A stretch of DNA of 61,154 bases. Origin: a plasmid. The stretch is from the sequence record NZ_CP121836.1. One strand, written 5' to 3'. The notes beneath the pieces are model-generated. The model did not search any database. It had not been told where the DNA came from and worked only from the letters and a program-made list of their open reading frames with translations. This document shows positions 1,717 to 46,635 of the stretch, in pieces; positions within the stretch are counted from its first letter, which is position 1; each line of letters opens with the position of its first letter. Position numbers and translations under genes: made by a program.

Positions 1717-2373
1717 TTAGTCAGGAACTACTATTAAACCTAATTGCTCTAAAAGTTGTTCTTGCTGCCACGAACAGATTTTTACACCTGTAAGGTCAAC
1801 TTTCCGAGGGTCTAAACCATACAACTCCGAGTGGCTCAAATCACAACCTTGCAACCTACACTGGCTCCAACACCCTTCAGAAAATACTCCCCGACTTAAA
1901 TCAGACTCTTTAAATGATGCACCACTCAGATTTGCGCCAATCCATCTATTCTCAAACAAATCACACTTTTCGATACACTGCCTTTCAAAGTTGGCGTATG
2001 AAAGATTACAACCTGTTATATAAGCTGAACAAAAATACATTCTGTTCGATACCTGATTCATGAAGCTAGCTTGAGCAAAATTGGCACCCTTTAAATCGCA
2101 TTCTCTGAACTCGATACCAAAACAATTTGCACCTTTGAAATACGACATTGAAAGACTGCAGTTTTTAAAAGATGCATCTCTAAGATCCGAGTAAGAAAAA
2201 TCACACCCCTCTAATTCACCTCGTTCAATGAAAGAACAATCTACAAATTGTGTATCGCGGAGGTTCGCTCGTTTAAAGGAACAGCAGAAAAATTTGCAAT
2301 TTTTAAAATACTGACCACTCATGTCTTGATGTGAAAAGTCTGCTTGTACATATAACTGGTCTGTTTTATCCAT
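1717..2373 (-). CDS. qnrVC: Pentapeptide-repeat quinolone-resistance protein Qnr (218 aa), qnrVC-like cassette gene.
   Basis: 218-aa pentapeptide-repeat protein MDKTDQLYVQADFSHQ...CFGIEFRECDLKGANF...KICSWQQEQLLEQLGLIVVPD, typical of Qnr size and motifs. AT-rich cassette followed by a long VCR-like attC. Confidence 0.85.
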   Translation of the reverse strand: MDKTDQLYVQADFSHQDMSGQYFKNCKFFCCSFKRANLRDTQFVDCSFIERGELEGCDFSYSDLRDASFKNCSLSMSYFKGANCFGIEFRECDLKGANFAQASFMNQVSNRMYFCSAYITGCNLSYANFERQCIEKCDLFENRWIGANLSGASFKESDLSRGVFSEGCWSQCRLQGCDLSHSELYGLDPRKVDLTGVKICSWQQEQLLEQLGLIVVPD

Positions 2374-2486
2374 TTTCTAGCCCTCTTTCTATTTGAGTCG
2401 AAGACTAACATTTACCAACCAGTTCTCAAGAAAAATAAACACCTTAAAAACAGCAACTTACAACCACTTAAAATCGCAAAAATCGC

Positions 2487-3565
2487 GAATTCAACTTCGA
2501 AGTGCGACACTCGCCTATGCCGCCTGACGGTACTCTTCGAATACCTTGACAGGCTGCCTGAATCCGAGACATTTCCGAGGTCGTAGGTTGAGCCACTGCT
2601 CCGCTCTCCTGACATCCTCGTCCGTGACCTCTCTCAGGTCTGTTCCCTTTGGGATAAACTGCCTCAACAGCCCATTGCTGTTCTCGTTCAGACCGCGCTC
2701 CCACGAAGAGTAAGGGTGCGCAAAGTAAGTCTCGGCACCCAGCGCTTCCTCTATCGCCTTGTGTTCGGCAAACTCGCCGCCGTTGTCAAAGGTGATGGTA
2801 TGCACCTGCTCGATGTAGGGCGTTAACATCTCGATTATCGCATCCCGCACCACCCCAGCCTGTTTGCTCGCGACCCGCTTGACCAGATAGAGCCGGCTCT
2901 TGCGCTCCACCAGGGTGACCAGTGCACCTGTGCCTTGCTTGCCCAGCACCGTGTCCGCCTCCCAATCACCGAGCCGCTCCCGGCTATCGACGATAGCCGG
3001 CCGTTCATCAATAGAGCGGGCTTCCTTGATGGGAGAACGCAGGCTGCTCGCCCCCCTTGCGGTAGCGCTTGTGGCCCTGGCGCAGATGGCGGTACAACTG
3101 GCCACCCCGGGCTTTGTCGGCGGCCACATGGCGGTATATCCACTCGTGACTCACCATGAGGCCTATCTGCTTGCCCACCGCGCTTATCTGCTCCGGGCTC
3201 CACCACCAGGCGAGTGTCAGCTCGACAAACTGGATGACATCGGCAGATAGCCGAGATTTGGCCGCACTGGCCCGTCGGTGGGTGGCGTGCTGATGCGCAT
3301 TGTCTGGCTGGTAGCCCTGCGGCCCGGCGTTACGACGCAGCTCCCGGTAGAGGGTGGAGCGATGAACGCCAATGGCGCGTGCGGTGGCAAGGATGGACAT
3401 CCCCTGTGCGCGAAGCACCGATAACTGGTATCGTTGCCCCTCGGTCAACTGCTGATAGCTCATGGTGATACTGCTTTTACTTTGGCGAGCAGAAGGGTAC
3501 CACCAATCAGCAGTTGGCCACCTCTCGCCATTCATCCATGAGTGTCGCACTTATTATCTGAATTC
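2487..3565 (-). mobile_element. IS30-family insertion sequence (about 1079 bp). It is inserted in the 5'-UTR of the first (qnrVC) cassette, between attI1 and the qnrVC start.
   Basis: Imperfect 26-bp terminal inverted repeats GAGTGTCGCACTTATTATCTGAATTC (3540-3565) and GAATTCAACTTCGAAGTGCGACACTC (2487-2512) flank an IS30-type transposase. No clear target-site duplication seen. Confidence 0.75.
2515..3463 (-). pseudogene. IS30-family DDE transposase split into two overlapping ORFs (3008..3550 and 2515..3129). Frameshift is near a C7/G7 homopolymer at about 3050-3056.
   Basis: N-terminal HTH MSYQQLTEGQRYQLSVLRAQGMSILATARAIGVHRSTLYRELRRN. C-terminal DDE region GDWEADTVLG...TLVERKSRLYL...TFDNGGEFAEH...SWERGLNENSNGLLRQFIPKGTDL (IS30 signature). 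The two frames overlap at 3008-3129. Confidence 0.7.
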
Positions 3566-3676
3566 CCGAATAAGGTACCAAATTGACGCTCTAAGGCACT
3601 GTTTTTTAATTCACCCATGCCGCATGGCTAGAAAAAAAGTTTTGATTAATCATGGCGCTTGCAAGAAAAACACATA

Positions 3677-3741
3677 ACTTTGTTTTAGGGCGACTGCCCT
3701 GCTGCGTAACATCGTTGCTGCTCCATAACATCAAACATCGA
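3677..3741 (-). other. attI1 recombination site of the class 1 integron. Crossover point is G|TTATGT at about 3676/3677.
   Basis: Reverse strand reads ...GTTACGCAGCAGGGCAGTCGCCCTAAAACAAAGTTATGT, the characteristic 5'-CS/attI1 end. Confidence 0.7.
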
Positions 3742-3813
3742 CCCACGGCGTAACGCGCTTGCTGCTTGGATGCCCGAGGCATAGACTGTACAAAAAAACA
3801 GTCATAACAAGCC

Positions 3814-4827
3814 ATGAAAACCGCCACTGCGCCGTTACCACCGCTGCGTTCGGTCAAGGTTCTGGACCAGTTGCGTGAGCGCATACGCTACTTGCATTAC
3901 AGCTTACGAACCGAACAGGCTTATGTCCACTGGGTTCGTGCCTTCATCCGTTTCCACGGTGTGCGTCACCCGGCAACCTTGGGCAGCAGCGAAGTCGAGG
4001 CATTTCTGTCCTGGCTGGCGAACGAGCGCAAGGTTTCGGTCTCCACGCATCGTCAGGCATTGGCGGCCTTGCTGTTCTTCTACGGCAAGGTGCTGTGCAC
4101 GGATCTGCCCTGGCTTCAGGAGATCGGAAGACCTCGGCCGTCGCGGCGCTTGCCGGTGGTGCTGACCCCGGATGAAGTGGTTCGCATCCTCGGTTTTCTG
4201 GAAGGCGAGCATCGTTTGTTCGCCCAGCTTCTGTATGGAACGGGCATGCGGATCAGTGAGGGTTTGCAACTGCGGGTCAAGGATCTGGATTTCGATCACG
4301 GCACGATCATCGTGCGGGAGGGCAAGGGCTCCAAGGATCGGGCCTTGATGTTACCCGAGAGCTTGGCACCCAGCCTGCGCGAGCAGCTGTCGCGTGCACG
4401 GGCATGGTGGCTGAAGGACCAGGCCGAGGGCCGCAGCGGCGTTGCGCTTCCCGACGCCCTTGAGCGGAAGTATCCGCGCGCCGGGCATTCCTGGCCGTGG
4501 TTCTGGGTTTTTGCGCAGCACACGCATTCGACCGATCCACGGAGCGGTGTCGTGCGTCGCCATCACATGTATGACCAGACCTTTCAGCGCGCCTTCAAAC
4601 GTGCCGTAGAACAAGCAGGCATCACGAAGCCCGCCACACCGCACACCCTCCGCCACTCGTTCGCGACGGCCTTGCTCCGCAGCGGTTACGACATTCGAAC
4701 CGTGCAGGATCTGCTCGGCCATTCCGACGTCTCTACGACGATGATTTACACGCATGTGCTGAAAGTTGGCGGTGCCGGAGTGCGCTCACCGCTTGATGCG
4801 CTGCCGCCCCTCACTAGTGAGAGGTAG
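3814..4827 (+). CDS. intI1: Class 1 integron integrase IntI1 (337 aa).
   Basis: Full-length IntI1 sequence [57 protein letters not shown]...[61 protein letters not shown]. Confidence 0.97.
3901..3929 (-). promoter_or_regulatory. Integron cassette promoter Pc, weak PcW variant (-35 TGGACA, 17-bp spacer, -10 TAAGCT), located inside intI1.
   Basis: The plus strand shows AGCTTA (3901-3906), 17 nt, then TGTCCA (3924-3929). No TGN extended -10. Confidence 0.7.
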
Positions 4828-5004
4828 GGCAGCGCAAGTCAATCCTGGCGGATTCACTACCCCTGCGCGAAGGCCATCGGTGCCGCATCGAACGGCCGGT
4901 TGCGGAAAGTCCTCCCTGCGTCCGCTGATGGCCGGCAGCAGCCCGTCGTTGCCTGATGGATCCAACCCCTCCGCTGCTATAGTGCAGTCGGCTTCTGACG
5001 TTCA

Positions 5005-5029
5005 GTGCAGCCGTCTTCTGAAAACGACA
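5005..5029. repeat. IRi, the 25-bp inverted repeat at the intI1 end of the Tn402-family class 1 integron. Outer end at 5029.
   Basis: Plus strand GTGCAGCCGTCTTCTGAAAACGACA is the reverse complement of TGTCGTTTTCAGAAGACGGCTGCAC. Confidence 0.9.
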
Positions 5030-5036
5030 GTTTTTG

Positions 5037-5137
5037 TGTCATTTTCAGAAGACGACTGCACCAGACAACGCGGTTTGAAGGCTGTTGTGCAGTCGTCTAT
5101 TGAACGAACAGTATCAGGAGTCCGCTGCACGAATGAT
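5037..5137. repeat. Tn402-family IRt-like terminus: 25-bp IR TGTCATTTTCAGAAGACGACTGCAC at 5037-5061 plus about 75 bp of related end sequence. It lies in inverse orientation 7 bp from IRi.
   Basis: Exact IRt 25-mer. The following about 75 bp are roughly 70% similar to the 98 bp between IS6100 and IRt at 57727-57824 (shared GGCTGTTGTGCAG...TATCAG...CTGCAC). Confidence 0.7.
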
Positions 5138-5335
5138 GACCTCAAGCCGGTTCTGGTCGCGCTGGCGACCGATCTGCCCCTGGATGTGCGATACCGCGAC
5201 CACGATCTTTCCGGCGATTGGGCGGGCTACCGCGAATGCCACATCAAGCCCGACCTGCTGCTGATCTACCGCAAGTCCGACGCCGACACCCTGCGACTGG
5301 CGCGGCTTGGCTCCCATAGCGAGCTGTTCGGCTGA
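5138..5335 (+). pseudogene. RelE/ParE/YafQ-family toxin gene, 5'-truncated. Only the C-terminal about 65 codons remain and no antitoxin gene is present.
   Basis: Translation DLKPVLVALATDLPLDVRYRDHDLSGDWAGYRECHIKPDLLLIYRKSDADTLRLARLGSHSELFG matches the YafQ/RelE C-terminal consensus (GxWxGYRxxHIxPDxLLIY...RxGxHxxLF). Upstream residues show no toxin similarity and coincide with the IRt-like end. Confidence 0.7.
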
Positions 5336-5461
5336 TGCCAGTCGCCTTGTCCGCCAAACGATCATTAGGCGGCCAAACCGGACGCCTGTCCGAAAACATC
5401 TTGCGCAACGGGATGACGGACAATAAGATAGGCGGACGGTATAACGGACAAATGGGCGGAA

Positions 5462-6037
5462 ATGGCACTCATCGGCTATGCGCGGGTATCGACGGCGGAA
5501 CAGGACACCGCCTTGCAGACGGATGCGCTGCGCAATGCAGGCTGCGAACGGGTTTTCGAGGACACGGCATCCGGGGCCAAGGCAGACCGGCCCGGCTTGG
5601 CCGATGCGCTGGCTTATCTGCGCGATGGCGATGTGCTGGTCGTCTGGCGGCTGGATCGGCTTGGCCGCTCCCTGCCGCACCTGATTGAGACGGTCGGCAA
5701 GCTGGAAGCACGGGGCGTCGGCTTCCGCTCGTTGACTGAAAACATCGACACCACCACGCCGGGCGGACGGCTCATCTTCCATGTGTTCGGTGCGCTGGGC
5801 CAGTTCGAGCGCGACCTGATCCGCGAGCGCACCAAGGCCGGGTTGACCGCTGCCGCCGCACGCGGGCGCAAAGGCGGACGCAAGCCGGTTGTCACTGCCG
5901 ACAAGTTGCAACGAGCGCGGGAGCTTGTCGCCAACGGCTTGAATGTCCGCGAGGCCGCCGCACGCCTCAAGGTAGGAAAAACCGCTCTCTACGCTGCCTT
6001 GCAGGCGGCCAGTTCTGGCAGTGCAGCCGACTCCTGA
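5462..6037 (+). CDS. Serine recombinase / resolvase (191 aa). Either TniR/TniC-like of a Tn402-family element or a plasmid multimer-resolution resolvase targeted by res-site hunters.
   Basis: MALIGYARVSTAEQDTALQ...DVLVVWRLDRLGRSL...FHVFGALGQFERDLIRERT, with catalytic Ser in the YARVST motif and a C-terminal HTH. The roughly 400-bp upstream region could hold a res site. Confidence 0.85.
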   Translation: MALIGYARVSTAEQDTALQTDALRNAGCERVFEDTASGAKADRPGLADALAYLRDGDVLVVWRLDRLGRSLPHLIETVGKLEARGVGFRSLTENIDTTTPGGRLIFHVFGALGQFERDLIRERTKAGLTAAAARGRKGGRKPVVTADKLQRARELVANGLNVREAAARLKVGKTALYAALQAASSGSAADS

Positions 6038-6043
6038 TATTTC

Positions 6044-6068
6044 GTGCAGTCACCTTCTGAAAACGACA
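6044..6068. repeat. Third Tn402-type 25-bp repeat, an IRi-like variant with 3 mismatches, in the same orientation as IRi. Located immediately after the resolvase stop.
   Basis: Plus strand GTGCAGTCACCTTCTGAAAACGACA compared with GTGCAGCCGTCTTCTGAAAACGACA at 5005-5029. Confidence 0.7.
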
Positions 6069-6085
6069 CCCTGATAATCGAGTGC

Positions 6086-9000
6086 TTATAGTTGCCCGCC
6101 TACACCCTTGAACTTCTCAACAAAGGCAGCGATCTTCTGGAAGACAGTCTGCTTCTTGGTCAGGAATTGCGGGTTCAATGGGCTCATCTTAGGCAGAACC
6201 GCATTGAGCTCCGTGCCATTCTCAGTGGCGAACTCGCGCTTCAGTGAGTTGGTGATATAGCGCTTGGCGGCTTCTGCGTTCAGGCCCTCGTCGCTAATCA
6301 GCTCTGCAGCCTCTCGCTGCTGTTCCGCTTGAGCGAAAGTGAAGAAGGCCTCAATTACGCTGGCCTTGTCGCCGATCTGGTCCAAATCGGTCTGGTTGAT
6401 GAAGTCCACCACCAGACTTTCTTTCGCGCGGTTGCCCAGGCTGGCACGAATCACACGCCGCACTTCATCCACCAGTTCAGACTTGCTCTTGGTCTTCTTG
6501 TTGTGCTCGAAGATCAGTTCCAGGATGTAGTCCAGGTTGATTTCCTGAGACTTCAATAGGTCCACCTCAAAGACCACGTCATCCCAGTCAATGGTGGACT
6601 TCTCTTTCTCGGCCCCAGCCTTCTCACGGCGTAGCCAGTCGCGCACGTCGTTGTAGGTCGAGCGATAGTCCTGAACCTTCCGCTCGGGCGGGAGCGTGAT
6701 GGCTTGCAGCGCGGTCAGATCTTCATCACTCAGGTAGTGCTTGGCCTTGAATGCCTCGACCGCTGCCGGGTCGGTCATGTCGACGCTTTGCAATTCCTTC
6801 AAGCTGGCAAATTCGTCATAGTTCTGCAGCACGTTCTCGACGCGTAGGTACTCGCCGAACAGCTTGGCGAAGGCTTTTTTGTCAGCTTCCTTTTCAATGG
6901 CCGATGGATCGGGAAAGCGGGTTTCCAGCTCGTTCACCACGGCGACAAAACCACGTCGCGCCTCACCGGTGGCCGCATCGGTGAAGCCTTCCATGTACTC
7001 CTGGTAGCTCTTCTCCAGCACCACGTTCTTGGTGTTCTTATCACCGAACAAGGTGATGGCGTCGATGGTCGCCTGTTCCAGGTCGCGGAAGGTGACGATG
7101 TTGCCGAAGGTCTTGGTGGCGTCAAAGATGCGGTTAGTACGCGAATAGGCCTGCATCAGTCCGTGGAAGCGCAGATTCTTGTCGACAAACAACGTGTTGA
7201 GCGAGGGCGCATCGAAGCCGGTCAGGAACATACCCACCACGATGAGCAGGTCGATCTCCTTGGCCTTCACCTGCTTGGCCAGGTCTCGGTAGTAGTTCTG
7301 GAAGCCGTTGCTATCCACGCTGAAGTTGGTTTTGAACAGTGCGTTGTAATCCGCAATGGCCGCGCTCAAGAACTCCTTGGCGCTGCTGTTCATTGCGGAT
7401 ACATCAAAGCTTTCATCCTGAATATCGCCGATAGCATCCTGCTCCTCATTGGCGGCGAAGGAGAAGATGGTCGCCACGCGCAAAGGCTTGTCGCTATCCT
7501 TCTGCAAGGTCTTGAACGACTCGTAATACAGCTTGGCGGCATCGACGCTGCTCACGGCAAACATAGCGTTGAAGCCCTTGTTGCCCGCGTGCAGGCGGTG
7601 GGTTTTCTGCCGGAAGTTGTTCAGGATGTACTGGGTAATTTCGCGGATGCGGTCAGGATGCAGCAGGGCTTGCTTGTTCTCTGCCGCACTCAGCTTCTTT
7701 TCGTCCTTCTCGGTCTCGATGGCCTTGAACTGCGGGCGCACATCGTTGTAATCCACCTTGAACTTCAGCACCTTCTCATCGCGAATCGCGTCGGTGATCA
7801 CGTAGGAATGCAACTCGCGGCCGAACACGCTGGCGGTGGTTTCCGCACCCAGCGCGTTCTCCGGGAAGATTGGGGTGCCGGTAAAGCCAAACTGATAGAA
7901 CCTCTTGAACTTCTTCTGCAGGTTCTTCTGCGCTTCACCGAACTGGCTGCGGTGACATTCATCGAAGATGAACACGACCTGTTTGCCGTAGATGGGCAAA
8001 TCACCTTCACTCTTCATCAGGTTATTGAGCTTCTGGATGGTGGTGACGACGATCTTGTTGTCGTCCTTCTCCAGATTGCGCTTGAGGCCAGCCGTACTAT
8101 CAGAGCCATTCACGCTGTCGGGAGAAAAGCGCTGGTATTCCCGCATGGTCTGGTAGTCCAGATCCTTGCGGTCCACCACGAAGAACACCTTGTCGATGAA
8201 ATCCAGCTCCGTCGCCAAACGCGCCGCCTTGAAGCTGGTCAGCGTCTTGCCGGAACCGGTGGTGTGCCAGATAAAGCCACCGCCCTCAAGACTGCTCCAG
8301 CTCTTGGCCTGATAGGCGCTCTTGATCTTCCACAGAATGCGCTCGGTGGCTGCGATTTGATAAGGGCGCATCACCAGCAGTGTATCGCTCACGTCGAACA
8401 CCGAGTAATGCAGCAACACATTAAGCAGGGTGTGTTTCTGGAAGAAGGTGGCCGTGAAGTCCTTCAGGTCCTTGATCAGCGTGTTGTCCGCCTTCGCCCA
8501 GTTCATGGTGAAGTCGAAGCTGTTCTTGTTGCGCTGCGTGGTGTTGGCGAAGTAGCGGCTGTCGGTGCCGTTGGAGATCACAAACAGCTGCAAATACTTG
8601 AACAAGGAATTCTCGCTGTTGAAGCTCTCCTTGCTGTAGCGATGCACCTGGTTGAAAGCCTCGCGGATGGCCACGCCGCGCTTCTTCAGCTCTACTTGTA
8701 CCAGTGGCAGGCCATTGACCAGAATCGTCACGTCGTAGCGGTTGGCGTGGCTGCCGGCTTGCTCGAATTGCTTGATCACCTGCACCTTGTTGCGGGCAAT
8801 GTTCTTTTTATCGAGCAGATAGATGTTCTGAATGCGGCCATCGTCAAACACGAAGTCATGGATGTAGTCATCATGAATTTTGCGCGTCTTGTCGACGATG
8901 CTGTCGCTGGGCTTGTCCAACCAGGTCTCAACAAAACGCGCCCACTCGCCTTCGGCAAACTGCACGTTGTTCAGCGCCTGCAGCTGTACCCGCACATTCG

Positions 9001-9184
9001 CCAGCAAGGCTTGCGGCGTGTTCAGCGTGGGCAGAAATTCGTAACCCTGATTGACCAGATCCTGAATCAGCTCGCGCTCCAGATCACTTTCGCTCTGGTA
9101 GCCTTCTGCGACCTTCCACTCTGGGCTGTATTTATCCAGAACGATAAAGTTGTTCGATTCGGCGATGGTTTTGTAGTCGCTCAT
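6086..9184 (-). CDS. hsdR: Type I restriction enzyme R subunit HsdR (1032 aa).
   Basis: SF2 helicase motifs (TGSGKT, DECH box [10 protein letters not shown]) and typical HsdR N-terminus [25 protein letters not shown]. Confidence 0.95.
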
Positions 9185-10216
9185 TCTTTCGCACCTTTGT
9201 TTTGCAGCAGTTTTTTTACTTCACGGTCGAAATCAGATTCGATGCGCTGCTGCTTGTTGAATTTTTCATATTCGGCAAAGGCTTTTTGTTCCGCCTGCTG
9301 GCGGGAAACCGTTCCGAAACCGTCCAGAATCCGGTACTCATTGAAGGCAAGAAATTTGTTTACGCTCTCGGCAAAGCTCTCCATCGTGAAGGTATTGCGT
9401 CGCTCGATAATGCCTTCGATGTAGTCGAAAAAAAGCTGAAACAGCGCGCTCCAGTTTTTTGATATCGGCTTCGCTCAAATAATTCTTTGCCACGTTTGCA
9501 TCTGACTTCAACACGCGGCCATCCGGCGCATTTTTATAAGTGCTCATGCCCATCAAGGGCTTGCTGGCATCGGCATTCAAGGCAATGATTTCTGCCGCCG
9601 TATGGCCGGTAATCGCAAAATGGAACTTGTCCTGCACATGGGCGTAAAACAGCCGGGTAGTCTCCGATTTCGGGTCGTAATCGATGCTGCACTCGGCAAA
9701 AATATCGGTGATTTGTTGGTAAATCCGCCGCTCGCTGGCGCGGATCGAGCGCACCCGCTCCAGCAGCTCGCGGAAATAGTCTTTACCAAAGAAACGGCCA
9801 TTCTTCAGGCGCTCATCATCCATGGCAAAGCCCTTGATGATGTACTCCTTGATCAGCTGGGTGGCCCAAATGCGAAACTGTGTGGCCTGTGCGGAATTCA
9901 CCCGGTAACCCACCGAGATCACCGCATCCAGGTTGTAGTACTCCAGCTTGCGTGTAACCTGACGCGCTCCCTCTTGTTGAACTGTTTCCAAAACGGAAAG
10001 AGTTGCCTCGCGCTGCAATTCGCCCGATTCGTAGATGTTGTCCAAGTGCTTGGAGATCGCCGCCACGCCCACGCCAAACAACTCGGCCATGCGCTTTTGC
10101 GTCAGCCAGATGGTTTCATTGCTGAGCAGCACCTCAACCTTGATCGCGCCATTGGGGGCGGTGTAGAGCAGGAATTCTGTCGTTTCATCCCGCAGCGTGA
10201 GATTGTGCTTGGACAT
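9181..10216 (-). pseudogene. rhuM: RhuM-family protein gene embedded in the type I R-M locus, apparently frameshifted near a T7/A7 homopolymer (about 9427-9433). Split into ORFs 9338..10216 and 9181..9384.
   Basis: The first ORF carries the RhuM-family core (MSKHNLTLRDETTEFLLYT...). The second ORF encodes the family C-terminus ...[30 protein letters not shown] in another frame. Confidence 0.6.
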
Positions 10217-10227
10217 GGCAATTCCCT

Positions 10228-11442
10228 TTATGCCTGAGCAACTGTGGGGGCTTCAGGCTTCGGGAAGCTCAACAGCAGATCGCGGTAATACTCGTATTGC
10301 TTCTGGCGTAACTCGATTTCGCGGGGCAAGCCTGCGGTGAGGGAAGCTGTCAACGCGTCGAATTTGTCGAGGATGGCGACGATGCGAGCCTGCTCGGCAA
10401 GCGATTTTTCAGGGTCGTCTGCGTAGGGTATAGGCAGCGCAAAGCCCTTGATGATGCTTGAATTCAGGTCACCTCTAGCGCCCTGGCCGAGCGCCTTAAT
10501 GTTTTCATAATTAAAGCTTACCCAGTGAAAGACATAACGGTACAAGGCCTTGGTGCTATCAATCTCCAAACAGCCGCAGTGCTGATTGGTTGTTAAGGGT
10601 ATCTTGTTGATCGCAGACCTGCCTGCCGTTGCTCCCGATATGGCAATGATTACGCAATTCGCCGGAATCCACTTCGCTGCGGATTTTTCTAAAGCCTTCT
10701 GCGTAATCTTGATTTCAGTACTCTCGATGTCCGAAAACTTGACCTCTTGGGTTCTTAGCCAGGGAATATCCCCGTCATCGTAATACTCTGGGTTGCCGGC
10801 CGTTGGCGTTCCGCCCGAGTACCATTTTTTCGTAACATCTCCCAACGTCTTCCACGCCACTTCCCCCTCTTCAAAACTCAACAACTGGTCGCGATAGTAG
10901 TTGTATTGTTTTTTGCGGGCGGTCAGCTCGGCGGTCAGCTCGGCGGTCAGCTCGGCGGTCAGCTCGGTGAAGGCGTCCAGTATGCGGACGATTTCAGCCT
11001 GGATTTCAAGCGATTTTTTGGGGTTATCCGGACAAGGGATGGGAATCTTTAACTCGTTTAAGACGGATTGCGTTTGACTGGGAACGCCGCCCGCCTGGTT
11101 CATCTCGCCAAGACCTACCGTTGTCAAGAAATAGTAAAGATATTTCGGCCAAACCTGCGCTTCATTAATTTCCGTATAAAAGATAGTGTCGACGGTCCAA
11201 AACGGAACATCGACGAAGAATAGATTGCCAAGCGAGCCCTTTCTCGGAATCAAGACTGATGGCTTGTTGTAGGCGTAGGTGTCCGCATATCGCATGATCC
11301 CGCCGGAGCCATAAACAGGAAATTCGCCATCGCCAAGCGACTTGTGATCTTTACCGTTCTTGATGCGCACAATGTCGCCAAGACGCTTGAACTCAACCCC
11401 ATCCGGGCAGTGTTCAGCGATTAGGTCATCAATACGACTCAT
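10228..11442 (-). CDS. hsdS: Type I restriction-modification specificity subunit HsdS, type IC (EcoR124-like), with a central TAEL tetrapeptide repeat array.
   Basis: Two target-recognition domains separated by a conserved central region containing [34 protein letters not shown]-terminal conserved region [16 protein letters not shown]. Confidence 0.9.
10921..10971. repeat. 12-bp tandem repeat (GGTCAGCTCGGC x about 4) encoding the TAEL repeats in the central region of HsdS.
   Basis: Plus-strand ggtcagctcggcggtcagctcggcggtcagctcggcggtcagctcggtgaagg. Confidence 0.9.
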
Positions 11443-12998
11443 GCCTTCAGCTCCTCGCCTTCAATCTCCGCCACGATGGCGTCGATGTCTTTGCGTAGCC
11501 GGTCGATCCTGGCAACCGTGGTTTTCAGCTCGGCATTGAGTTGAACGATGTCCACCACCTCGCGGGTGTCTTTGGCTTCGACATAGCTGCTAACCGAGAG
11601 GTTGTAATCGTTGGCGGCGAGGGCATCCAGGCTCACCGACTTGGCAAAGTGGTCCACCTCTTTCTTGCTATCAAACACCGCCATGATCTGCTCGATGTGC
11701 GAGTCCAGCAGCACGTTGTTGTTGGTTTCTTTCTTGAACAGGCCGCTGGCGTCGATGAACTGGGTATTGGAGTCTTTCTTATTCTTCGCCAGCACCAGAA
11801 TGTTCACGGCGATAGTGGTGCCAAAGAACAGGTTGGGCGCGAGCGCGATCACCGTCTCCACGTAGTTGTTGTCCACCAGGTACTGGCGAATCTTCTGCTC
11901 AGCACCGCCCCGGTAGAAGATGCCAGGGAAGCAGACAATCGCCGCACGGCCTTTGCTGGAGAGGTAACTCAAAGCGTGTAGTACAAAGGCGAAGTCGGCC
12001 TTGGACTTGGGCGCGAGCACGCCCGCTGGGGCAAAGCGGTCGTCGTTGATCAGGGTGGGGTCGTCCGAACCGATCCACTTCACCGAATACGGCGGGTTGG
12101 AGACGATGGCATCGAAGGGCTTGTCGTCGCCGAAGTGCGGGTCGATCAGGGTGTTGCCGAGCTGGATGTTGAACTTGTCGTAGTTGATGTTGTGCAAGAA
12201 CATGTTCATCCGCGCCAGGTTGTAGGTGGTGTGGTTGATTTCTTGCCCGAAGAAGCCGTCTTCGATGATGTGTGCGTCAAAGTGCTTTTTGGCCTGCAGC
12301 AACAGCGAGCCGGAGCCACAGGCGGGGTCATAAATCTTGTTGACGCTGGTTTGCTTGTGCATCGCAAGCTGTGCGATCAGCTTGGACACATGCTGCGGCG
12401 TGAAGAACTCGCCGCCCGACTTGCCCGCGTTCGCTGCGTAGTTGGAGATCAGGAATTCGTAGGCATCGCCGAACAGATCAATGCGACTGGCGTCGAAGCC
12501 GCCGAAGTCCAGCTCCGCCACGCGTTTGAGCACTTTGGACAGACGATCGTTCTTGTCTTTGACGGTGTTGCCCAGACGATTGCTGGTGGTATCGAAATCA
12601 GCAAACAGGCCTTTGATGTCGCGCTCGGAGGGGTAGCCGTTGGCGGAAGCTTCGATAGCGGCAAAGATGTTGGCCAGATCGGTGTTCAGGCTCTCATTGG
12701 TGTTGGCGTTGGCTGCGATGTTCACGAACAGTTGGCTGGGGTAGATGAAGTAGCCCTTGGTCTTGATGGCGTCATCTTTGGCAGCCGCGATATTCGGATC
12801 ACTGTCTGCCATGGCGGCGTAATTGACAGAAGAGTCGCCGCCGGTGATGTAGTCGACGAAGTTCTCGCTGATGAAGCGATAGAACAGCGAGCCCAGCACG
12901 TATTGCTTGAAGTCCCACCCATCGACGGCGCCGCGGACGTCATTGGCAATATCCCAGATCTTGCGCTGTAGGGCTGCGCGTTGTTCATTGCTTGTCAT
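11439..12998 (-). CDS. hsdM: Type I restriction-modification N6-adenine DNA methyltransferase HsdM (519 aa).
   Basis: N-terminal HsdM domain [23 protein letters not shown], the AdoMet motif, and the catalytic NPPY motif ([11 protein letters not shown]). Confidence 0.95.
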
Positions 12999-13213
12999 TT
13001 TAAAGTCCTGTTTCGATTCGTTGAGCCCTGCTCAGGCGCAATGCTTGAGCAGGAGTAAATGGGTTGTTACGGCAATAGGGCCGCGTTCTATCTCCCGGCC
13101 TTCTTCGCCTTGGGTCGATAGAAATCCTCGATTCTTCAGGCGGTCACCAACATATCGCCCGGCTTCTATCGCCCACCTATCGACGATAGTGCGCAGGTTG
13201 TCCGATAGGCTGC

Positions 13214-14851
13214 TCATGCCAGCGCCCAGTAGCGCCGCCAGCGCTTGTTACCCTCAAAGCGGACTTCCCCGCGCTCGATCAGCTCTTCCAGCGCGCGCTT
13301 GACTTGCTTGGGATGGATTTCGCCGCCGACGCGCTGATGGATGTCGCTGATGGCCGACCTGGGGTAGCGCTGCAGGTCTTCCAGTACCAGCGCGGCCAAG
13401 CGGTGCGGCTCAATGCGCTTGAGTGTGGTCTCGCCGGTGAACTGGAGGCTGCGCAGCAAGCTGGGGTCAACAAAATAGCGTGTTGCCTGGGTACGCCCGG
13501 CGCTTTGCACCAACTGCCAGTCCAGTAGGCGCTTTAGCCAAGGTTGCAATGCTTCAACCGACGGCAGCTCAAGCGACGTTACCAGCTCGCGTGCCGTCAG
13601 GGCATCGTGCTGCGCCAAGAGGCCCAACGCGATCCGCTCGCGCTGCGTGAGCTGGTAGGTCTGATCTGCTTTCGCAATGAAGTCGATGACCTCAGGCTTG
13701 AGAATGCGGCGGCGCACTGTCACCTGCACACGATCGTGGGTCTCGATCAACTCGGGAGCCGGGCGGCCCTGTGAGAGCAGTACCTCGAAGATCTTGTCGA
13801 AGCCGCTGCCTTCCCGCTCCATCAGTTTCAAGTCATGGAACAGTCGTGCCAGGTGTTCGTTACGGCGTACCGTAGTGTGGAGCACGTTCTGCGGCGAGAC
13901 GCCCAGCGGTAGCGGTCCAGGGTTGACCACTTCCAGCCGGTCTGGATGCAGGTTCAAGAAGATGTCACCGCGCTGGGTGTAGGGACGATGTACCAACGCG
14001 TTGACCAACAATTCGCGCACCACGATTTCATCGAAGGCGGGCACGTTCTGGCGGTACAGGCCATCGGGTAGTTCGTAGCGCTCGCGAAAGTCAGGCACCT
14101 CCTGCCAGACCGCTTCGATCAATTCCATCGGGCTTTGCGTGTGGTCGTCCCAGACCAGCTTGTTGACCTTCTGTCCGTGCTCGTCGTACTTGATGAACTG
14201 GATGACCGGAGCGGTGGTCAGTTGAGCGCGATGATGCTGGCGACCGAGACTGAGCACGCCCAGATTGGTGAGGTTCGGCCCTTGTGCGAGCTGATAGTGA
14301 TCGAGCAACTCATCGTCAGACTTCTCTTTCACGGACGGCTTGACGCGATCCGATGCGCGCAAGGCTTCGAGCAGCTTGTCGCGTTTGGCAGGATCAATTT
14401 CGGTACGTGGAACATGCAAGGTGGTTTGCGTTTCCCATGGCAATGCGGAACGCTCGCTGGCGAGGCGCATAACGTCATCGCCCGTCACGGGCTTGCTTTG
14501 GTCGGCTACGCGCAGGAAGTAGCGGCCGTCCGTGGTAGATGCAACGGCCATGGCGCGCGGAATGAGCAATTCGATGTATTGGCCGCCATTCGGGGCGATG
14601 GTGACATCCGGCAGCACCGTCACGTTGACCGTGCGCTCTGCCAGCTTGCGACGCAGTGTGTCTGGCAGGTCTGGAGGGACACGCTGATCGGCGGGAGGCT
14701 CGCTCTGGCCATCCTCGATCCCCAGCAGTAGGCGGCCACCGGTTGCATTGGCAAAGGCAATGCAATCCTTAGCAATTTCGTTCCAGTCCGCCGTCTTGCC
14801 AGTCACGGCCCGCAAGGACTTTTGGTCAAGGAGTTGCCCTTCCAAGCTCAC
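13214..14851 (-). CDS. ATP-binding protein with a divergent-AAA (AlbA_2/Schlafen-like) N-terminal domain and an HATPase_c_4-like C-terminal region. Often mis-annotated as a RecG-like regulator and commonly linked to R-M loci.
   Basis: 545-aa protein; domain architecture inferred from sequence pattern only. Sits immediately upstream of hsdM on the same strand. Confidence 0.6.
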   Translation of the reverse strand: MSLEGQLLDQKSLRAVTGKTADWNEIAKDCIAFANATGGRLLLGIEDGQSEPPADQRVPPDLPDTLRRKLAERTVNVTVLPDVTIAPNGGQYIELLIPRAMAVASTTDGRYFLRVADQSKPVTGDDVMRLASERSALPWETQTTLHVPRTEIDPAKRDKLLEALRASDRVKPSVKEKSDDELLDHYQLAQGPNLTNLGVLSLGRQHHRAQLTTAPVIQFIKYDEHGQKVNKLVWDDHTQSPMELIEAVWQEVPDFRERYELPDGLYRQNVPAFDEIVVRELLVNALVHRPYTQRGDIFLNLHPDRLEVVNPGPLPLGVSPQNVLHTTVRRNEHLARLFHDLKLMEREGSGFDKIFEVLLSQGRPAPELIETHDRVQVTVRRRILKPEVIDFIAKADQTYQLTQRERIALGLLAQHDALTARELVTSLELPSVEALQPWLKRLLDWQLVQSAGRTQATRYFVDPSLLRSLQFTGETTLKRIEPHRLAALVLEDLQRYPRSAISDIHQRVGGEIHPKQVKRALEELIERGEVRFEGNKRWRRYWALA

Positions 14852-40520: not shown

Positions 40521-41252
40521 ATGAAACCAACATTGCAGGCTTACGACGAACTACAGCGGGCATATGATCACTTTAACAACGAGCTGTTTGATGGTGTCCT
40601 GCCCGATTGCCTGATCACCCTCCAACGAGAAAAACAAACCTATGGCTATTTCAGCCCGGAGAGGTTCGTTAACTCCCAAGGAACCCGGACGGACGAAATC
40701 GCCATGAATCCGGCTTACTTCGCCGTATGCCCCCCCGAAGAAATTATGCAAACGCTTTGCCACGAAATGTGCCACCTATGGCAGCACCATTTCGGCAAGC
40801 CTGGGCGGCGTGGCTATCACAACAAGGAATGGGCCGACTTCATGGAAGCTATCGGACTAATGCCAAGCAGCACCGGCGCACCTGGTGGAGCACGAACCGG
40901 CGACAAGATGGCGGATTATGCCATTGAGGGCGGGCGCTTCTTGGAAGCATATGAAAGCCTGATGACGGATGACTATCGGATCAGTTGGATGGATCGCTTC
41001 CCCAGTCGTGAAAAGCTGATGGCAGCAATCGCCAACGGCACCACCGATGAAATGGCCGGGGATCTTTCTATCATGGGGCTGGCTGGGATCTCTGTTGAGG
41101 ATGGAGAAATCACATTTGAGCCAGGGGAGCGCCCGAATAAGTCGAATCGGGAAAAATATACTTGCCCGCTCTGCCAGGCGAACATTTGGGGCAAGCCTGG
41201 CCTAAACGTCCTATGCGGAGACTGTGACACGGCTTTTGAGGCCGCTAACTGA
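40521..41252 (+). CDS. SprT-like zinc metalloprotease domain protein with a C-terminal zinc ribbon (243 aa). It is the first gene on the putative leading side of oriT.
   Basis: HExxH motif LCHEMCHLWQHH within a SprT-like fold pattern. C-terminal CPLCQ...CGDC. Confidence 0.7.
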   Translation: MKPTLQAYDELQRAYDHFNNELFDGVLPDCLITLQREKQTYGYFSPERFVNSQGTRTDEIAMNPAYFAVCPPEEIMQTLCHEMCHLWQHHFGKPGRRGYHNKEWADFMEAIGLMPSSTGAPGGARTGDKMADYAIEGGRFLEAYESLMTDDYRISWMDRFPSREKLMAAIANGTTDEMAGDLSIMGLAGISVEDGEITFEPGERPNKSNREKYTCPLCQANIWGKPGLNVLCGDCDTAFEAAN

Positions 41253-41377
41253 CGCGCTTCGCTTGTCGGCCCTCGGTTCGTGGTGAACAGACTTCGCTAG
41301 TTCACCACGCCCCAAGGGCTAGATTAAACGCCAAAAGTAAGGGGGCCGATTTTGGCCCCCTTGTTCGTTCTGTGACT

Positions 41378-41605
41378 TCAGTTGTTCCCGCCATTTGCCA
41401 GCTTGCGCCAGGCGGCTAACGTCGCCTGGTAAAAGCTGCGGCCTATTCTCGACGGCACCGCCAGCACAAGCACGGCCACCGTTGCAATAATGGCCAGCCA
41501 GGCCAACAGGGTTTGACTGTCCTTCAGCAATGGATAGGCCGCGAACAACAACAGCACTCCAACGGCAACAGCAGCGGCAAAGTAGGTTTTCGCTTTTGCC
41601 GTCAT
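41378..41605 (-). CDS. Small two-TM membrane protein (75 aa), the last gene of the korA-incC-korB operon.
   Basis: Two hydrophobic helices. Starts 3 nt after the korB stop. Confidence 0.4.
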   Translation of the reverse strand: MTAKAKTYFAAAVAVGVLLLFAAYPLLKDSQTLLAWLAIIATVAVLVLAVPSRIGRSFYQATLAAWRKLANGGNN

Positions 41606-41607
41606 GG

Positions 41608-42909
41608 TCAGCCCTCGATAACAGCAACAAGCTGAACTTGGTTCAGATCAACTTCGATTTCTTCCCCGTCGTCGTCGTACTTCAGCCAGCCCAAACCATA
41701 TGCAGCGCGGCGACTGGACAACAGGCGAGCCGGTCGCTCGTCATAGCGCACCTGAATGATCGGCTTCTTGATTTTGCCTTGTTGCTCGTCAGCGTTCAGC
41801 AGGGCATTAGCCGCCGCATCCGGCCCGCCCCCGCCAATCGGGGCACCGTCGATGGTCAACGGCTGTTGCTTGTCCTTATCGCCTTCACCTGGCCAGCCTG
41901 TGCCGCCTTGGTCGTCACTGTCCGGCTCCTTGTCGCCGCCTGCACCTGGCCAGCCTGCGCCGCCCTGGTCGTCACTGTCCGGCTCTTTGTCGCCGCCTGC
42001 ACCTGGCCAGCCTGCGCCGCCCTGGTCGTCACTGTCCGGCTCTTTGTCGCCGCCTGCACCTGGCCAGCCTGCGCCGCCCTGGTCGTCACTGTCCGGCTCT
42101 TTGTCGCCGTCTGCACCTGGCAAGCCTGCGCCGCCCTGGTCGTCACTGTCCGGCTCCGTGCTCGGGTTCTTCAGGTCATTACAGAAGCGGCGAACGTCTG
42201 CCGTTGTCAGTTCGTCCCCATCCTCGGCAACCATGCTTTCGATGCAATAGGTTTCCACCTCGTCGGGGTAGTTCTTGAATGAACGATGCAGGATAGCCAA
42301 GGCTTGAACGGACACGCATCGGCCCGAGTCGTACAGCTCACGAATGCAATCCGGCAACTCGAAAAAGCTGATATGGTCAGACACGAACGAAGCGGGCTTA
42401 CCCAGCTTTCCGGCAATCTCTGATTTCTTGTCTCCGTTGTCGATTTGACGCTGGATGAAGTGGGCCATTTCGAGGGCCGTCAGCCCCTCCCGTTGAATGT
42501 TATCGACGGCGTTATCGTACTCGTCGGCGTCAGAGTCGATAAACGCCGGGACGGTATCAAGGCCCGCTTCCTGTGCGGCCAGGTAACGCCGATAACCGGC
42601 GTTAATCATAAACTCGCCTTCAAGCTCCGGGTGAGGCTTCAGGCTAAGGGGGTTTTTCACCCCCCGTTGTTTGCCTGTTACCTTACTGACCGCCTTCATA
42701 GAGTCAGCCAGTTCGGTGATTTTTGCCGGGTCTACTCGCTGGCGACTGTTGTTAGGGTCTGGATGGATTTTGCTGATCGGTACTTCACGAATCAGCAGGT
42801 TGTTATTCTCTGGTTCCGCCGCCTCTACTGGCGCGGCACCAGGCCCGCCCATCAGGTCGGACAGGTTGAACGAATCCAGCCCGCTGAGGTCTGCCCCTTT
42901 ACCACTCAT
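41608..42909 (-). CDS. korB: ParB/KorB-family partition and global regulator protein, with an acidic Gly/Asp-rich 19-aa tandem repeat (x4-5).
   Basis: ParB N-terminal box KIHPDPNNSRQ...GYRRYLAAQEAGLDTVPAFI and a central HTH. Repeats DSDDQGGAGWPGAGGDKEP (57-bp unit, 41880-42160). Confidence 0.85.
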   Translation of the reverse strand: MSGKGADLSGLDSFNLSDLMGGPGAAPVEAAEPENNNLLIREVPISKIHPDPNNSRQRVDPAKITELADSMKAVSKVTGKQRGVKNPLSLKPHPELEGEFMINAGYRRYLAAQEAGLDTVPAFIDSDADEYDNAVDNIQREGLTALEMAHFIQRQIDNGDKKSEIAGKLGKPASFVSDHISFFELPDCIRELYDSGRCVSVQALAILHRSFKNYPDEVETYCIESMVAEDGDELTTADVRRFCNDLKNPSTEPDSDDQGGAGLPGADGDKEPDSDDQGGAGWPGAGGDKEPDSDDQGGAGWPGAGGDKEPDSDDQGGAGWPGAGGDKEPDSDDQGGTGWPGEGDKDKQQPLTIDGAPIGGGGPDAAANALLNADEQQGKIKKPIIQVRYDERPARLLSSRRAAYGLGWLKYDDDGEEIEVDLNQVQLVAVIEG

Positions 42910-43700
42910 TCAGCCACCCCCATTTTTTCAAAGATAATGCTAAAGGCTTCCTGGAACTCTTTAGCTGCCTCCCGTGCTGCGGTTTTCTTCAGATGCCAGA
43001 CCGGCTTACCTTCAGAAAGCGCCTCGGGAATAGATGAACGGATGCCAATCTTGGCGGCAATCAGCAGGTGAGCATATTTGCTCAACAGTTGCTTGAGCGT
43101 TTCCCGTTGGGCTTCGCTGCGCGGATTGAAGCGGTTGGGGAGCATACCCAGGAAATTAAGATCCGGGTTCCACTTGTTCTTTACCCCGAAGACGGTTTTT
43201 AGCATCTTCTCGATCCCGTCGATTGAGTATTCTTCCAGCTCGATAGGGGAAAGCACGTAGTTGGCCACAATCAGGGCGGCAGTCATGCGAAGGCCCAAAG
43301 TCGGCGGGGTGTCGATGATGCAAAAATCAAACTCGCTGGCCAGCGTGGCCACCTGCTTTTTAAAGTTGGCTAGGACGGCAGGATCAGCCCGTTCCATATC
43401 AGCCATCAGGGGATCGGCCTCGATTAGGGTAATAGCGTCTCCCGCCGCCAGACTGAAAGGCTCGACGCCAAAAAGAGCACTAGCGGCCAATGCTACAGGG
43501 CTCCCGGATACGGTAAGGGTCTTCGTCGCGTTCGCTTGCGGATCAAGGTCAACAAAGACGACACGCATACCCTTTTCGCGCAACGCCATAGCCAGATGAA
43601 CCGCTGTAGTGGACTTGCCAACGCCACCTTTTTGATTCGATACAGTAACAATTTTCATATGCTCAACCCTTTGGTTTATTAGCCTGTTTATATGCCTCAT
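42906..43700 (-). CDS. incC: ParA/IncC partition ATPase. An alternative short form could start at 43658.
   Basis: Deviant Walker A KIVTVSNQKGGVGKSTTAVHLA. The start is nested in the 3' end of korA, as in IncP korA-incC. Confidence 0.9.
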   Translation of the reverse strand: MRHINRLINQRVEHMKIVTVSNQKGGVGKSTTAVHLAMALREKGMRVVFVDLDPQANATKTLTVSGSPVALAASALFGVEPFSLAAGDAITLIEADPLMADMERADPAVLANFKKQVATLASEFDFCIIDTPPTLGLRMTAALIVANYVLSPIELEEYSIDGIEKMLKTVFGVKNKWNPDLNFLGMLPNRFNPRSEAQRETLKQLLSKYAHLLIAAKIGIRSSIPEALSEGKPVWHLKKTAAREAAKEFQEAFSIIFEKMGVAE

Positions 43701-44001
43701 CCTCGATGGCCTTAACTATTGGGGCCATATCGACCGGCACACATACCGAAACACGTACCCAGCCCGCCGGAGGGGTGCCGTGCTTTTCGTGCGCTTGGCG
43801 CACCTTCCTAACCAAAGCCGCTACCGCCGAACGGCTTAGGCCGGACTCTTTCACTAAATCAACCTGCCGCCGCCCCTGCACCAGGATTGCCCTGGCGATC
43901 TCAACATTCTTGGCAGCCAAGCGGCGGGGAAGGTGTTTTAGTGCTGATTCAAATTCCTCGTTGGTCAGCGCCATGACCTTCACCCTATCACAGGCGGCCA
44001 T
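43663..44001 (-). CDS. korA: KorA/TrfB-like HTH transcriptional repressor (112 aa).
   Basis: Resembles IncP KorA in size and HTH region (...AKNVEIARAILVQGRRQVDLVKESGLSRSAVAALVRK...). Heads the incC-korB operon. Confidence 0.7.
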   Translation of the reverse strand: MAACDRVKVMALTNEEFESALKHLPRRLAAKNVEIARAILVQGRRQVDLVKESGLSRSAVAALVRKVRQAHEKHGTPPAGWVRVSVCVPVDMAPIVKAIEDEAYKQANKPKG

Positions 44002-44054
44002 TTTGGCCGCCGTTTAAAGATAACACTTTATCTGTTTACGTCAATAGATAGGGG

Positions 44055-45122
44055 TTACTCTTTGGTGTCGGCTGCGTCTTTTTTCTGTTGGCGTTTCGCT
44101 GTTGGCTTAGTCAACTTGTCGATCTCCTGGTTGGCTGCCTTCAGGCTTGCGGTGAGCGTGGCCCGTTCTTCCTTCAGCGCCTCGATGCTGCCCTGGTTGT
44201 CCTGGTTGGCCTTGGCCAGCTTGCCGATCTCCTGGTTGGCTGCCTTCAGGCTTGCGGTGAGCGTGGCCCGTTCTTCCTTCAGCGCCTCGATGCTGCCCTG
44301 ATTGTCCTGGTTGGCCTTGGCCAGCTTGTCGATCTCCTGGTTGGCCGCCTTCAGGTTCGCGGTGAGCGTGGCCCGTTCTTCCTTCAGCGCCTCGATGCTG
44401 CCCTGGTTGTCCTGGTTGGCCTTGGCCAGCTTGTCGATCTCCTGGTTGGCTGCCTTCAGGTTCGCGGTGAGCGTGGCCCGTTCTTCCTTCAGCGCCTCGA
44501 TGCTGCCCTGGTTGTCCTGGTTGGCTTTGGCCAGCTTGTCGATCTCCTGGTTGGCCGCCTTCAGGTTCGCGGTGAGCGTGGCATTATCAGAGGTAAACGA
44601 CTCGATAGACTGGCGACAAACGGCGAGTTCCTGAGTCAGCCGCTCAACCTCTGAAGCCAAGCCGATTGCCTTCTGCTCGATAGTGATCTTTTCAGAGAGG
44701 GCGGCCCGAGTCTCGGCCTCCTTTTCGCTCACAGCAACACGACAGCGATCTAGTTCACTTTCCAGGCGGGCCACTTCGTCCAGGGCTTCATCACGCTCCT
44801 GATCTGCCATAGCCACATGCTCGGCGGCATGAGCTTTAACCGCTTCAATATCAGCAGCAGCCAATTTACTAGCCACCTGCCACAACTCGGCAGCCACACG
44901 ATCAAACCCGGCTTTCAGCTCCCCCGGCAGCTCAATTACAACAATGTCCGATTGCTCTTGAGAGGCCCGCCACTCACGCATAACCGGCGAGATATGAGAC
45001 AAAGAGCCGCCGCCCATGCGCTCGCGCACCTGCTCATTTGTTGGCTTTGCTACCCCTTCAGATCGAAGTGATTCAGCAGCTCGGACGATCTTTTCTTTCA
45101 TTTCAGGCTTAATCATGGTCAT
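44055..45122 (-). CDS. kfrA: KfrA-like DNA-binding coiled-coil protein with 35-aa tandem repeats (x4).
   Basis: N-terminal DNA-binding region MTMIKPEMKEKIVRAAESLRSEGVAKPTNEQVRERMGGGSLSHISPVMREWR, then a long heptad-rich helix. 105-bp tandem repeat at about 44100-44600. Confidence 0.8.
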   Translation of the reverse strand: MTMIKPEMKEKIVRAAESLRSEGVAKPTNEQVRERMGGGSLSHISPVMREWRASQEQSDIVVIELPGELKAGFDRVAAELWQVASKLAAADIEAVKAHAAEHVAMADQERDEALDEVARLESELDRCRVAVSEKEAETRAALSEKITIEQKAIGLASEVERLTQELAVCRQSIESFTSDNATLTANLKAANQEIDKLAKANQDNQGSIEALKEERATLTANLKAANQEIDKLAKANQDNQGSIEALKEERATLTANLKAANQEIDKLAKANQDNQGSIEALKEERATLTASLKAANQEIGKLAKANQDNQGSIEALKEERATLTASLKAANQEIDKLTKPTAKRQQKKDAADTKE

Positions 45123-45251
45123 GGCTTCGGCTCCCTGTATTGTATGTATTGTATTTTAATACAATGCATACAATACATACAATACAACGGAGTGAAAAAC
45201 GAACAAAAAAAACCCGGCGCAATGGCCGGGGTCGGTGACAGGGTAGCGGCT

Positions 45252-46319: not shown

Positions 46320-46323
46320 GGTT

Positions 46324-46635
46324 TCAATCCCGGTCAGCGTCCCATATAGCCCCGAAACCTGCCAGGTGGGCCAAGATAGACCAAGCACCATAAGCAATAG
46401 GGCTAGGGTTGGTTTTGCTCACCCAACGTCTGAAGGTTCGGGTTCCCTTTCCGCTGCCCCTCTCACCAGGCAAACCAACTAGATCAGCAACATCAACACC
46501 ACTGAGCGGCTTACTAAGCCCTTTTCGTTGCCTAATCAGCTCCAACACCTCTTTGATTTCATCGACTGTTGGAGCCTGCCAATCTTCAGCAAACGGCCTA
46601 AGCGTTTCAGGTCTAATCATGCAATAAATCCTCAA
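46324..46635 (-). CDS. Hypothetical protein (103 aa), translationally coupled to the PRTase-domain gene.
   Basis: ORF only; no family recognised. Confidence 0.35.
   Translation of the reverse strand: MRIYCMIRPETLRPFAEDWQAPTVDEIKEVLELIRQRKGLSKPLSGVDVADLVGLPGERGSGKGTRTFRRWVSKTNPSPIAYGAWSILAHLAGFGAIWDADRD

Follow-up and report, generated by a model that had tools for sequence, protein, structure and literature searches.

A plasmid-borne type IC restriction-modification system of the EcoR124 family with three TAEL repeats in HsdS and a predicted EcoR124II-type target spacing

The hsdS gene of the plasmid sequenced as NZ_CP121836.1 carries a short tandem repeat in its central region, and this raises three questions: to which family of type I restriction-modification (R-M) systems the locus belongs, what spacing of the DNA target the repeat would set, and whether changes in repeat number switch the specificity of the enzyme. 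Spacer-length switching was reportedly first described for EcoR124I/II in 1989. The plasmid stretch that was analysed, 61,154 nt long, is referred to here as the window, and all coordinates count from its first letter.

Tandem Repeats Finder called one array in this region, the only one, at 10918-10967, consisting of 4.2 copies of a 12-bp unit with the consensus GGCGGTCAGCTC, 100% matches and zero indels, and the raw sequence agrees with the call. The original prediction, that a perfect 12-bp tandem repeat at 10921-10971 encodes three to four TAEL, referred to this same tract and was right about the repeat, while its coordinates were off by 3-4 bases. The unit, GAGCTGACCGCC on the minus strand, codes for E-L-T-A in frame with the 404-aa hsdS ORF, and the tract as a whole translates to T-EL-(TAEL)3-TA, which can be read as 3 complete TAEL or as 4 complete ELTA, so that the predicted count was accurate. 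The 17 residues encoded by the tract lie between ILDAF and RKKQYNYYR in the central coiled-coil region of HsdS. A chance or low-complexity origin of the repeat is ruled out by the Tandem Repeats Finder call together with the chance expectation for such a tract, which by a rough estimate (38 successive lag-12 matches with p ~0.27 each) is ~1.5e-17 per 61 kb.

The hsdS gene is part of an operon on the minus strand, 12998-6086, with the order hsdM-hsdS-rhuM-hsdR (Table 1). The start of hsdS overlaps the stop of hsdM (ATGA). The translation of HsdM contains the motifs DPACGSGS and NPPY, and that of HsdR contains the nuclease motif E-x-K (VQVELKK) and a DEAD-box (FDECH); judged by its reading frame and motifs, hsdR looks intact.

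Table 1. Features of the R-M operon and of its surroundings in the window
Feature	Coordinates	Strand	Basis or description
qnr-like pentapeptide-repeat gene	1717-2373		
intI1	3814-4827		
Resolvase gene	5462-6037		
hsdR, 1032 aa, restriction/translocase subunit	6086..9184	-	Pfam HSDR_N, SWI2_SNF2/ResIII, T1R_D3-like, EcoR124_C
rhuM-family gene, frameshifted	9181..10216 (repaired extent)	-	Pfam PF13310; MAFFT against Aeromonas relatives; PADLOC PDC-S05
hsdS, 404 aa	10228..11442	-	Pfam Methylase_S x2 (E=4e-45); PADLOC Specificity_I; aligned to 7bst_A and relatives
hsdS C-terminal conserved region D2	aa 346-404		
hsdS target-recognition domain 2 (TRD2)	~aa 196-345, nt 10408-10857	-	
hsdS central conserved region D1	~aa 141-195, nt 10858-11022	-	
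12-bp tandem repeat	10918..10967	-	coding-strand unit GAGCTGACCGCC; 4 full units and 2 bases; helix D1 of HsdS
hsdS target-recognition domain 1 (TRD1)	~aa 1-140, nt 11023-11442	-	alignments to EcoR124I HsdS and relatives
hsdM, 519 aa, N6-adenine methyltransferase subunit	11439..12998	-	Pfam N6_Mtase and HsdM_N
Schlafen AlbA_2 / HATPase_c_4 protein gene, 545 aa	13214-14851	-	Pfam
HTH_17 protein gene, 68 aa	14874-15080	-	Pfam, translation
Tn3-family transposase gene	51065-54067		
MFS efflux gene	55013-56227		

The gene order hsdM-hsdS-hsdR is typical of type IC systems, and the minus-strand order found here, with rhuM intervening before hsdR, fits it. The protein comparisons point to the same family. 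Residues 5-1031 of HsdR align to residues 6-1037 of EcoR124I HsdR (2w00_A) with 1851.7 bits, and the C-terminal domain of HsdR is Pfam PF12008 EcoR124_C, matched over profile positions 1-260 of 260 (E=1.5e-73). HsdM is identical to EcoR124 HsdM (7bst_D) at 420 of 517 positions (81%, 932 bits) and scores only 69 bits against HsdM of the type IA enzyme EcoKI. In HsdS, both conserved regions and TRD2 are matched by EcoR124I HsdS (7bst_A, E=5e-81). Type I families have been defined via complementation, antibody cross-reaction, and amino-acid sequence (PMC3874165), and type IC is characterized by tandem repeats of four amino acids (TAEL or the like) in the central region of HsdS (PMC10030836); the HsdS of the window has TAEL repeats in its central conserved region. 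Every sequence criterion tested thus makes it close to certain that the locus belongs, as had been predicted, to the type IC systems of the EcoR124 family.

What is known of the relation between repeat number and target comes from the characterized members of this family. EcoR124I has two TAEL and recognizes GAAN6RTCG, EcoR124II has three and recognizes GAAN7RTCG, and EcoDXXI and EcoprrI have three each; three TAEL has been called 'the optimum number', altered repeat numbers in hybrids shifted the gap as predicted, and the change in repeat number between EcoR124I and EcoR124II was attributed to unequal crossing-over (PMC3874165). This rule for type IC enzymes is supported in PMC3874165 and in PMC10030836, and the former bears out the original claim that a TAEL array sets the spacer length in EcoR124I/II. 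When the window HsdS is aligned with EcoR124I HsdS (7bst_A), a comparison that had been proposed with the prediction, there is one 4-residue insertion only and it lies inside the TAEL tract. The D1 linker, from ILDxF to RKKQY, is 17 residues long in the window HsdS as against 13 in EcoR124I, a length equal to that in EcoR124II (EcoR124/3), the three-TAEL form. Since HsdS is one TAEL longer than EcoR124I, it falls into the three-TAEL class with EcoR124II, EcoDXXI, and EcoprrI, for which a spacer of ~N7 is predicted by extrapolation from these four characterized enzymes. The N7 class is defined by a 7-bp nonspecific spacer with methylated adenines 8 nt apart, and because the reading of the half-sites by the TRDs also affects the number of N, the target could be written with N6 or N8 even if the adenines are separated as predicted. 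That the DNA has four perfect units (4.2) and not three is due to the flanks of the array, which are the repeat-like TEL and TA here and TAL and NM in EcoR124I; the first and last units of the window thus stand where EcoR124I has TAL and NM, which are not repeat residues. The reading in which four DNA units mean four TAEL and an N8 spacer is ruled out because the alignment with EcoR124I gives one extra unit only. The D2 linker of the window HsdS is also 17 residues long, as are the D2 linkers of its relatives, and with D1 and D2 linkers of equal length the three-TAEL form of D1 is the symmetric state.

It had been suggested that the copy number may be unusual, and this did not hold up, because the tract is one unit longer than in EcoR124I, the 17-residue linker is common among relatives, and two Aeromonas plasmids have the identical tract. 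Among 73 loci of species-representative genomes the D1 linker was 13 residues long in 41 and 17 in 28, with 5 residues in two loci and 9 and 25 residues in one each. Several of the 17-residue loci, from taxa as distant as Limnobacter, Cyclobacteriaceae, Dorea, and Shimia, share with the window the exact 17-residue linker and the 50-bp perfect tract. Of the best 120 database relatives, a set skewed to enterobacterial alleles with similar TRDs, 107 matched the D1 pattern, and in these the linker had 13 residues in 93, 17 in 6, and 9 in 8. Metagenomes were also scanned with the lineage-specific flanks enclosing 1-5 units, and 25 contigs with the exact flanks were found, one with 1 unit, three with 2, 15 with 3, six with 4, and none with 5; none of the 25 shares the TRDs of the window. 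As read from these alignments, the three-TAEL spacer repeat is a standard textbook feature at its canonical copy number. At the two ends of the distribution, a Thiothrix MAG (L021, ~8414) has a 25-residue linker, TAL-(TAEL)5-SM, encoded by a 63-bp perfect tract, and loci from Nitrosomonas (L006, ~8147) and Ileibacterium (L052, ~4101) have a single ELTA unit in a 5-residue linker; provided that these enzymes are active, such numbers would predict spacers well outside N6/N7.

The window HsdS itself has no identical counterpart in the protein database that was searched, where the best matches, from read-archive assemblies, are 92% and 90% identical. When hsdS was searched against PLSDB plasmids and the complete genomes of E. 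coli, only partial matches at 77-80% were obtained, except for the central region, which was matched at 93% in Aeromonas media, and so the allele is not an E. coli one; none of the annotated records gives a recognition motif. The window is a resistance-bearing IncU plasmid of the Aeromonas type: 18419-41000 is 100% identical to pRA3 of Aeromonas hydrophila, and 41000-49931 is 100% identical to the replication/partition region of an A. caviae plasmid. Near the R-M module there are genes for a class 1 integron integrase, a resolvase, a qnr-like pentapeptide protein, an IS630-like transposase, a Tn3 transposase, and an MFS pump, and the resistance and mobile-element region as a whole occupies 1717-6068 and 51065-56227. 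The part from 4000 to 6068 is 100% identical to a segment of thousands of plasmids, and the 3' end of hsdR lies 17 bp beyond it.

The closest relatives of the whole module are on two Aeromonas plasmids, pMC64A of A. media (NZ_CP047963) and pWP2-S18-CRE-03_1 of A. veronii (AP021941). Both have the same module of genes for an HTH protein, a Schlafen-like ATPase, hsdM, hsdS, rhuM, and hsdR, the Schlafen-like and HTH_17 gene pair upstream of hsdM being conserved with the R-M genes in each. Both also have the identical 4-unit tract, whereas both TRDs of their HsdS are entirely different from those of the window; one of them shares with the window the C-terminal tail of HsdS, ...PEAPTVAQA. The identity to these plasmids is 87-88% in hsdM and ~90% in the central region of hsdS, and it rises to 96.8-97.2% at the DNA level in the stretch that begins at the 3' end of hsdS and takes in rhuM and hsdR. 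This difference between hsdM and the rhuM-hsdR part indicates a mosaic operon with recombination breakpoints inside hsdS. As far as the three sequences tell, in this Aeromonas plasmid lineage it is TRD replacement that diversified specificity while the repeat count was held at four units.

Between alleles the count does change on a constant pair of TRDs. The two database proteins closest to the window HsdS share both of its TRDs, TRD1 at 96-97% and TRD2 at 90-95%, and on this one TRD pair there are 2 units (L084/L085), 3 units (L083), or 4 units (the window), with the unit and its flanks alike; the three-unit tract has one point substitution in its middle unit. By sequence comparison, these 2-, 3-, and 4-unit alleles form a naturally occurring series that shares one TRD pair. 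In addition, in 52 genes that have two or more units coding for ELTA, pairs of units were identical in DNA in 73% of cases within a gene and in 12% between genes, a difference reached in 0 of 2000 permutations. Such identity within genes is, on this statistic, the signature of concerted evolution via repeated contraction and expansion of the array, although codon preference shared within a genome contributes to this identity and could account for part of it. The original prediction that slippage in the tract would switch specificity is therefore upheld as an evolutionary process, the same TRD pair being found with 2, 3, and 4 units, and not as switching within a host population.

It may nevertheless be asked whether the tract is an active contingency locus, with a minority of plasmid copies having 3 or 5 units and giving subclones of N6, N7, and N8 specificity. 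The allelic series and the concerted evolution of the units would both be expected of such a locus, the perfect tract is 50 bp long as against 28 bp in an EcoR124I-like allele (L003), and interconversion of EcoR124I and EcoR124II through unequal crossing-over is documented (PMC3874165). However, exactly 4 units have been kept in three plasmids despite a difference of ~12% in hsdM and the replacement of the TRDs, the 5-unit allele with these flanks was absent from the metagenome scan, and a switch makes new unmodified sites and is expected to be costly. We therefore consider an active contingency locus unlikely. In its bolder form, the idea would be that a 50-bp tract on a broad-host-range IncU plasmid flips between N6, N7, and N8 at a measurable rate, and that the danger after a switch is buffered by the assembly-based restriction alleviation of type IC enzymes and perhaps by KlcA/ArdB. 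If true, the plasmid could keep re-tuning which incoming DNA gets excluded, and we regard this as a long shot.

The other alternative that has to be weighed concerns the gene between hsdS and hsdR. That a rhuM-family gene lies in this position had been predicted, and position and family (PF13310) are as predicted; the copy, though, is frameshifted. As sequenced, the rhuM ORF (9338-10216) encodes 292 aa and matches Pfam PF13310 (Virulence_RhuM) with 290 bits over profile positions 2-196 of 252 only. In a MAFFT alignment with the genes of the two Aeromonas plasmids (L081 and L082) the only gap is 1 bp long and lies at gene column 783, and it corresponds to an extra T: the window has T7 at 9428-9434 (minus strand) where both relatives have T6. 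The frame shifts after residue ~261 and the ORF ends 154 nt upstream of hsdR. With one T removed the gene codes for a 344-aa protein that is identical to RhuM of the A. veronii plasmid at 341 of 345 positions and would overlap the start of hsdR, as does the intact 344-aa gene in both relatives. The gene thus belongs to the RhuM family by descent and, with a profile match that is less than full length, is not intact as sequenced. The extra T is either a homopolymer sequencing error or a recent inactivating mutation.

In the latter case the frameshift could reduce the expression of HsdR, and the system could be decaying or reduced to a methylase, the frameshift in rhuM being polar on hsdR so that DNA is modified and restriction is poor. 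The extra T truncates RhuM and uncouples it from hsdR, with which it overlaps in both intact relatives, and a consensus scan of 5900-13400 for promoters and terminators, which is weak evidence either way, found no promoter-like site directly upstream of hsdR and fewer sites overall than in shuffled sequence. On the other hand, hsdR, hsdM, and hsdS are full length with their catalytic motifs present, and the additional T, lying in a homopolymer, could be an error of sequencing. We think it improbable that the system is in decay or reduced to a methylase, and the best-supported reading of the intact genes is that the enzyme is functional or was so until recently. Finally, that the repeat count is an assembly artefact, since assemblies can expand or collapse tandem repeats, is hardly credible for a tract of only 50 bp, which is below the length of any read type, keeps the reading frame, and recurs with exactly 4 units in six metagenome contigs and two complete, independent Aeromonas plasmids.

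RhuM genes are strongly enriched beside type I systems, including between the core genes (PMC9881135), and the RhuM ORF of the window matches the PADLOC candidate defence family PDC-S05. Our literature search on RhuM in type I operons returned this enrichment statistic and one listed example only, and no function was found. The position is occupied by other genes elsewhere. Directly after hsdS, in place of rhuM, L083 has an AAA_13 ATPase gene (2419-3312), and a homologue of it, seen as a truncated translation only, follows hsdS in L084 (3946-4215); pMC64A has, besides rhuM, a DUF1016/YhcG PDDEXK nuclease gene (9483-10523) between hsdM and hsdS. Since the embedded genes vary between close relatives, the type IC operon appears to have slots in which the cargo can be exchanged, a theme that is already known.

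A few other genes of the window deserve mention. The 545-aa Schlafen AlbA_2 protein has weak PADLOC matches to Argonaute-associated models (E=2e-9). The IncU backbone has at 46949-47374 (minus strand) a gene, annotated as klcA in related plasmids, for an antirestriction protein of 141 aa (Pfam PF03230, 93 bits). To judge from its title, a paper in the reference list of PMC3874165 reports that type I restriction is countered in vivo by KlcA/ArdB proteins, and the plasmid thus combines a type I R-M system with a gene directed against such systems. A KfrA-like protein (Pfam KfrA_N; 44055-45122, minus strand) has about four tandem copies of a ~35-residue repeat, EALKEERATLTANLKAANQEIDKLAKANQDNQGSI. 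Spurious ORFs at 47857-48302 translate to repeated peptide blocks, AKFRSGRQKEINQVANSPGTGSSSTRWP, which indicate direct repeats in the DNA just upstream of a putative replication gene of 459 aa (48551-49930, minus strand), and these are possibly the iterons of the IncU origin.

Taking the evidence together, the explanation that we favour, and which we hold to be likely correct, is a plasmid-borne type IC system of the EcoR124 family with a three-TAEL HsdS, an EcoR124II-type target of ~N7, and a tract that changes in frame over evolutionary time. In such an enzyme the two TRDs of HsdS would be spaced by helices D1 and D2, which form an antiparallel coiled coil, with the 12-bp repeat encoding the variable-length part of D1; with three TAEL (four ELTA) the D1 linker is one helical turn longer than in EcoR124I. 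The M2S1 methylase would then recognize a bipartite target of EcoR124II/EcoDXXI-type spacing, with ~N7 between the half-sites and the methylated adenines one bp further apart than for EcoR124I, and R2M2S1 would cut DNA that is without such methylation. The tract would change its length in frame via slipped-strand mispairing or unequal crossing-over, this being the presumed mechanism, and each unit gained or lost would move the spacer by 1 bp. In the lineage of the window plasmid the 4-unit state looks to be stably inherited, and diversity would come mainly from TRD replacement.

The locus is a new allele, but its kind has long been known. It adds one HsdS allele to the type IC family, with a TRD combination for which no protein in the searched database exceeds 92% identity, and it matters little beyond annotation. 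It also exemplifies a type IC module that lies next to the resistance region on an IncU plasmid. What is most useful is the comparison that came with it, namely one TRD pair with 2, 3, and 4 units and units that are homogenized within genes across many phyla. The series and the homogenized units together give natural support to the mechanism of spacer-length switching in EcoR124I/II, and the series predicts a set of motifs with the same half-sites and N5/N6/N7-type spacing.

Three groups of known systems can be compared with this locus. The phase-variable type I hsdS genes with simple sequence repeats (SSRs) described by Atack et al. 2020 (PMC7383803) also have an in-frame repeat between the TRD-coding regions whose change in length is predicted to alter spacing and specificity; those loci were found via short SSRs and mostly switch on and off by frameshift, whereas the unit here is 12 bp, always in frame, and its variation is known between alleles only. 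EcoDXXI and EcoprrI, by their description in PMC3874165, have three TAEL as does the window HsdS, and EcoprrI has a defence gene, prrC, embedded in its type IC operon at a position comparable to that of rhuM; the window operon embeds a frameshifted RhuM-family gene and not the PrrC anticodon nuclease. The third group is EcoR124I/II of plasmid R124, the type IC prototypes, which have the same hsdM-hsdS-hsdR order, the same D1 and D2 conserved regions, and the 12-bp TAEL repeat at the equivalent place. The window operon differs from them in having rhuM between hsdS and hsdR and in its IncU replicon, and both TRDs of its HsdS are different, so that its half-sites are expected to be other than GAA and RTCG.
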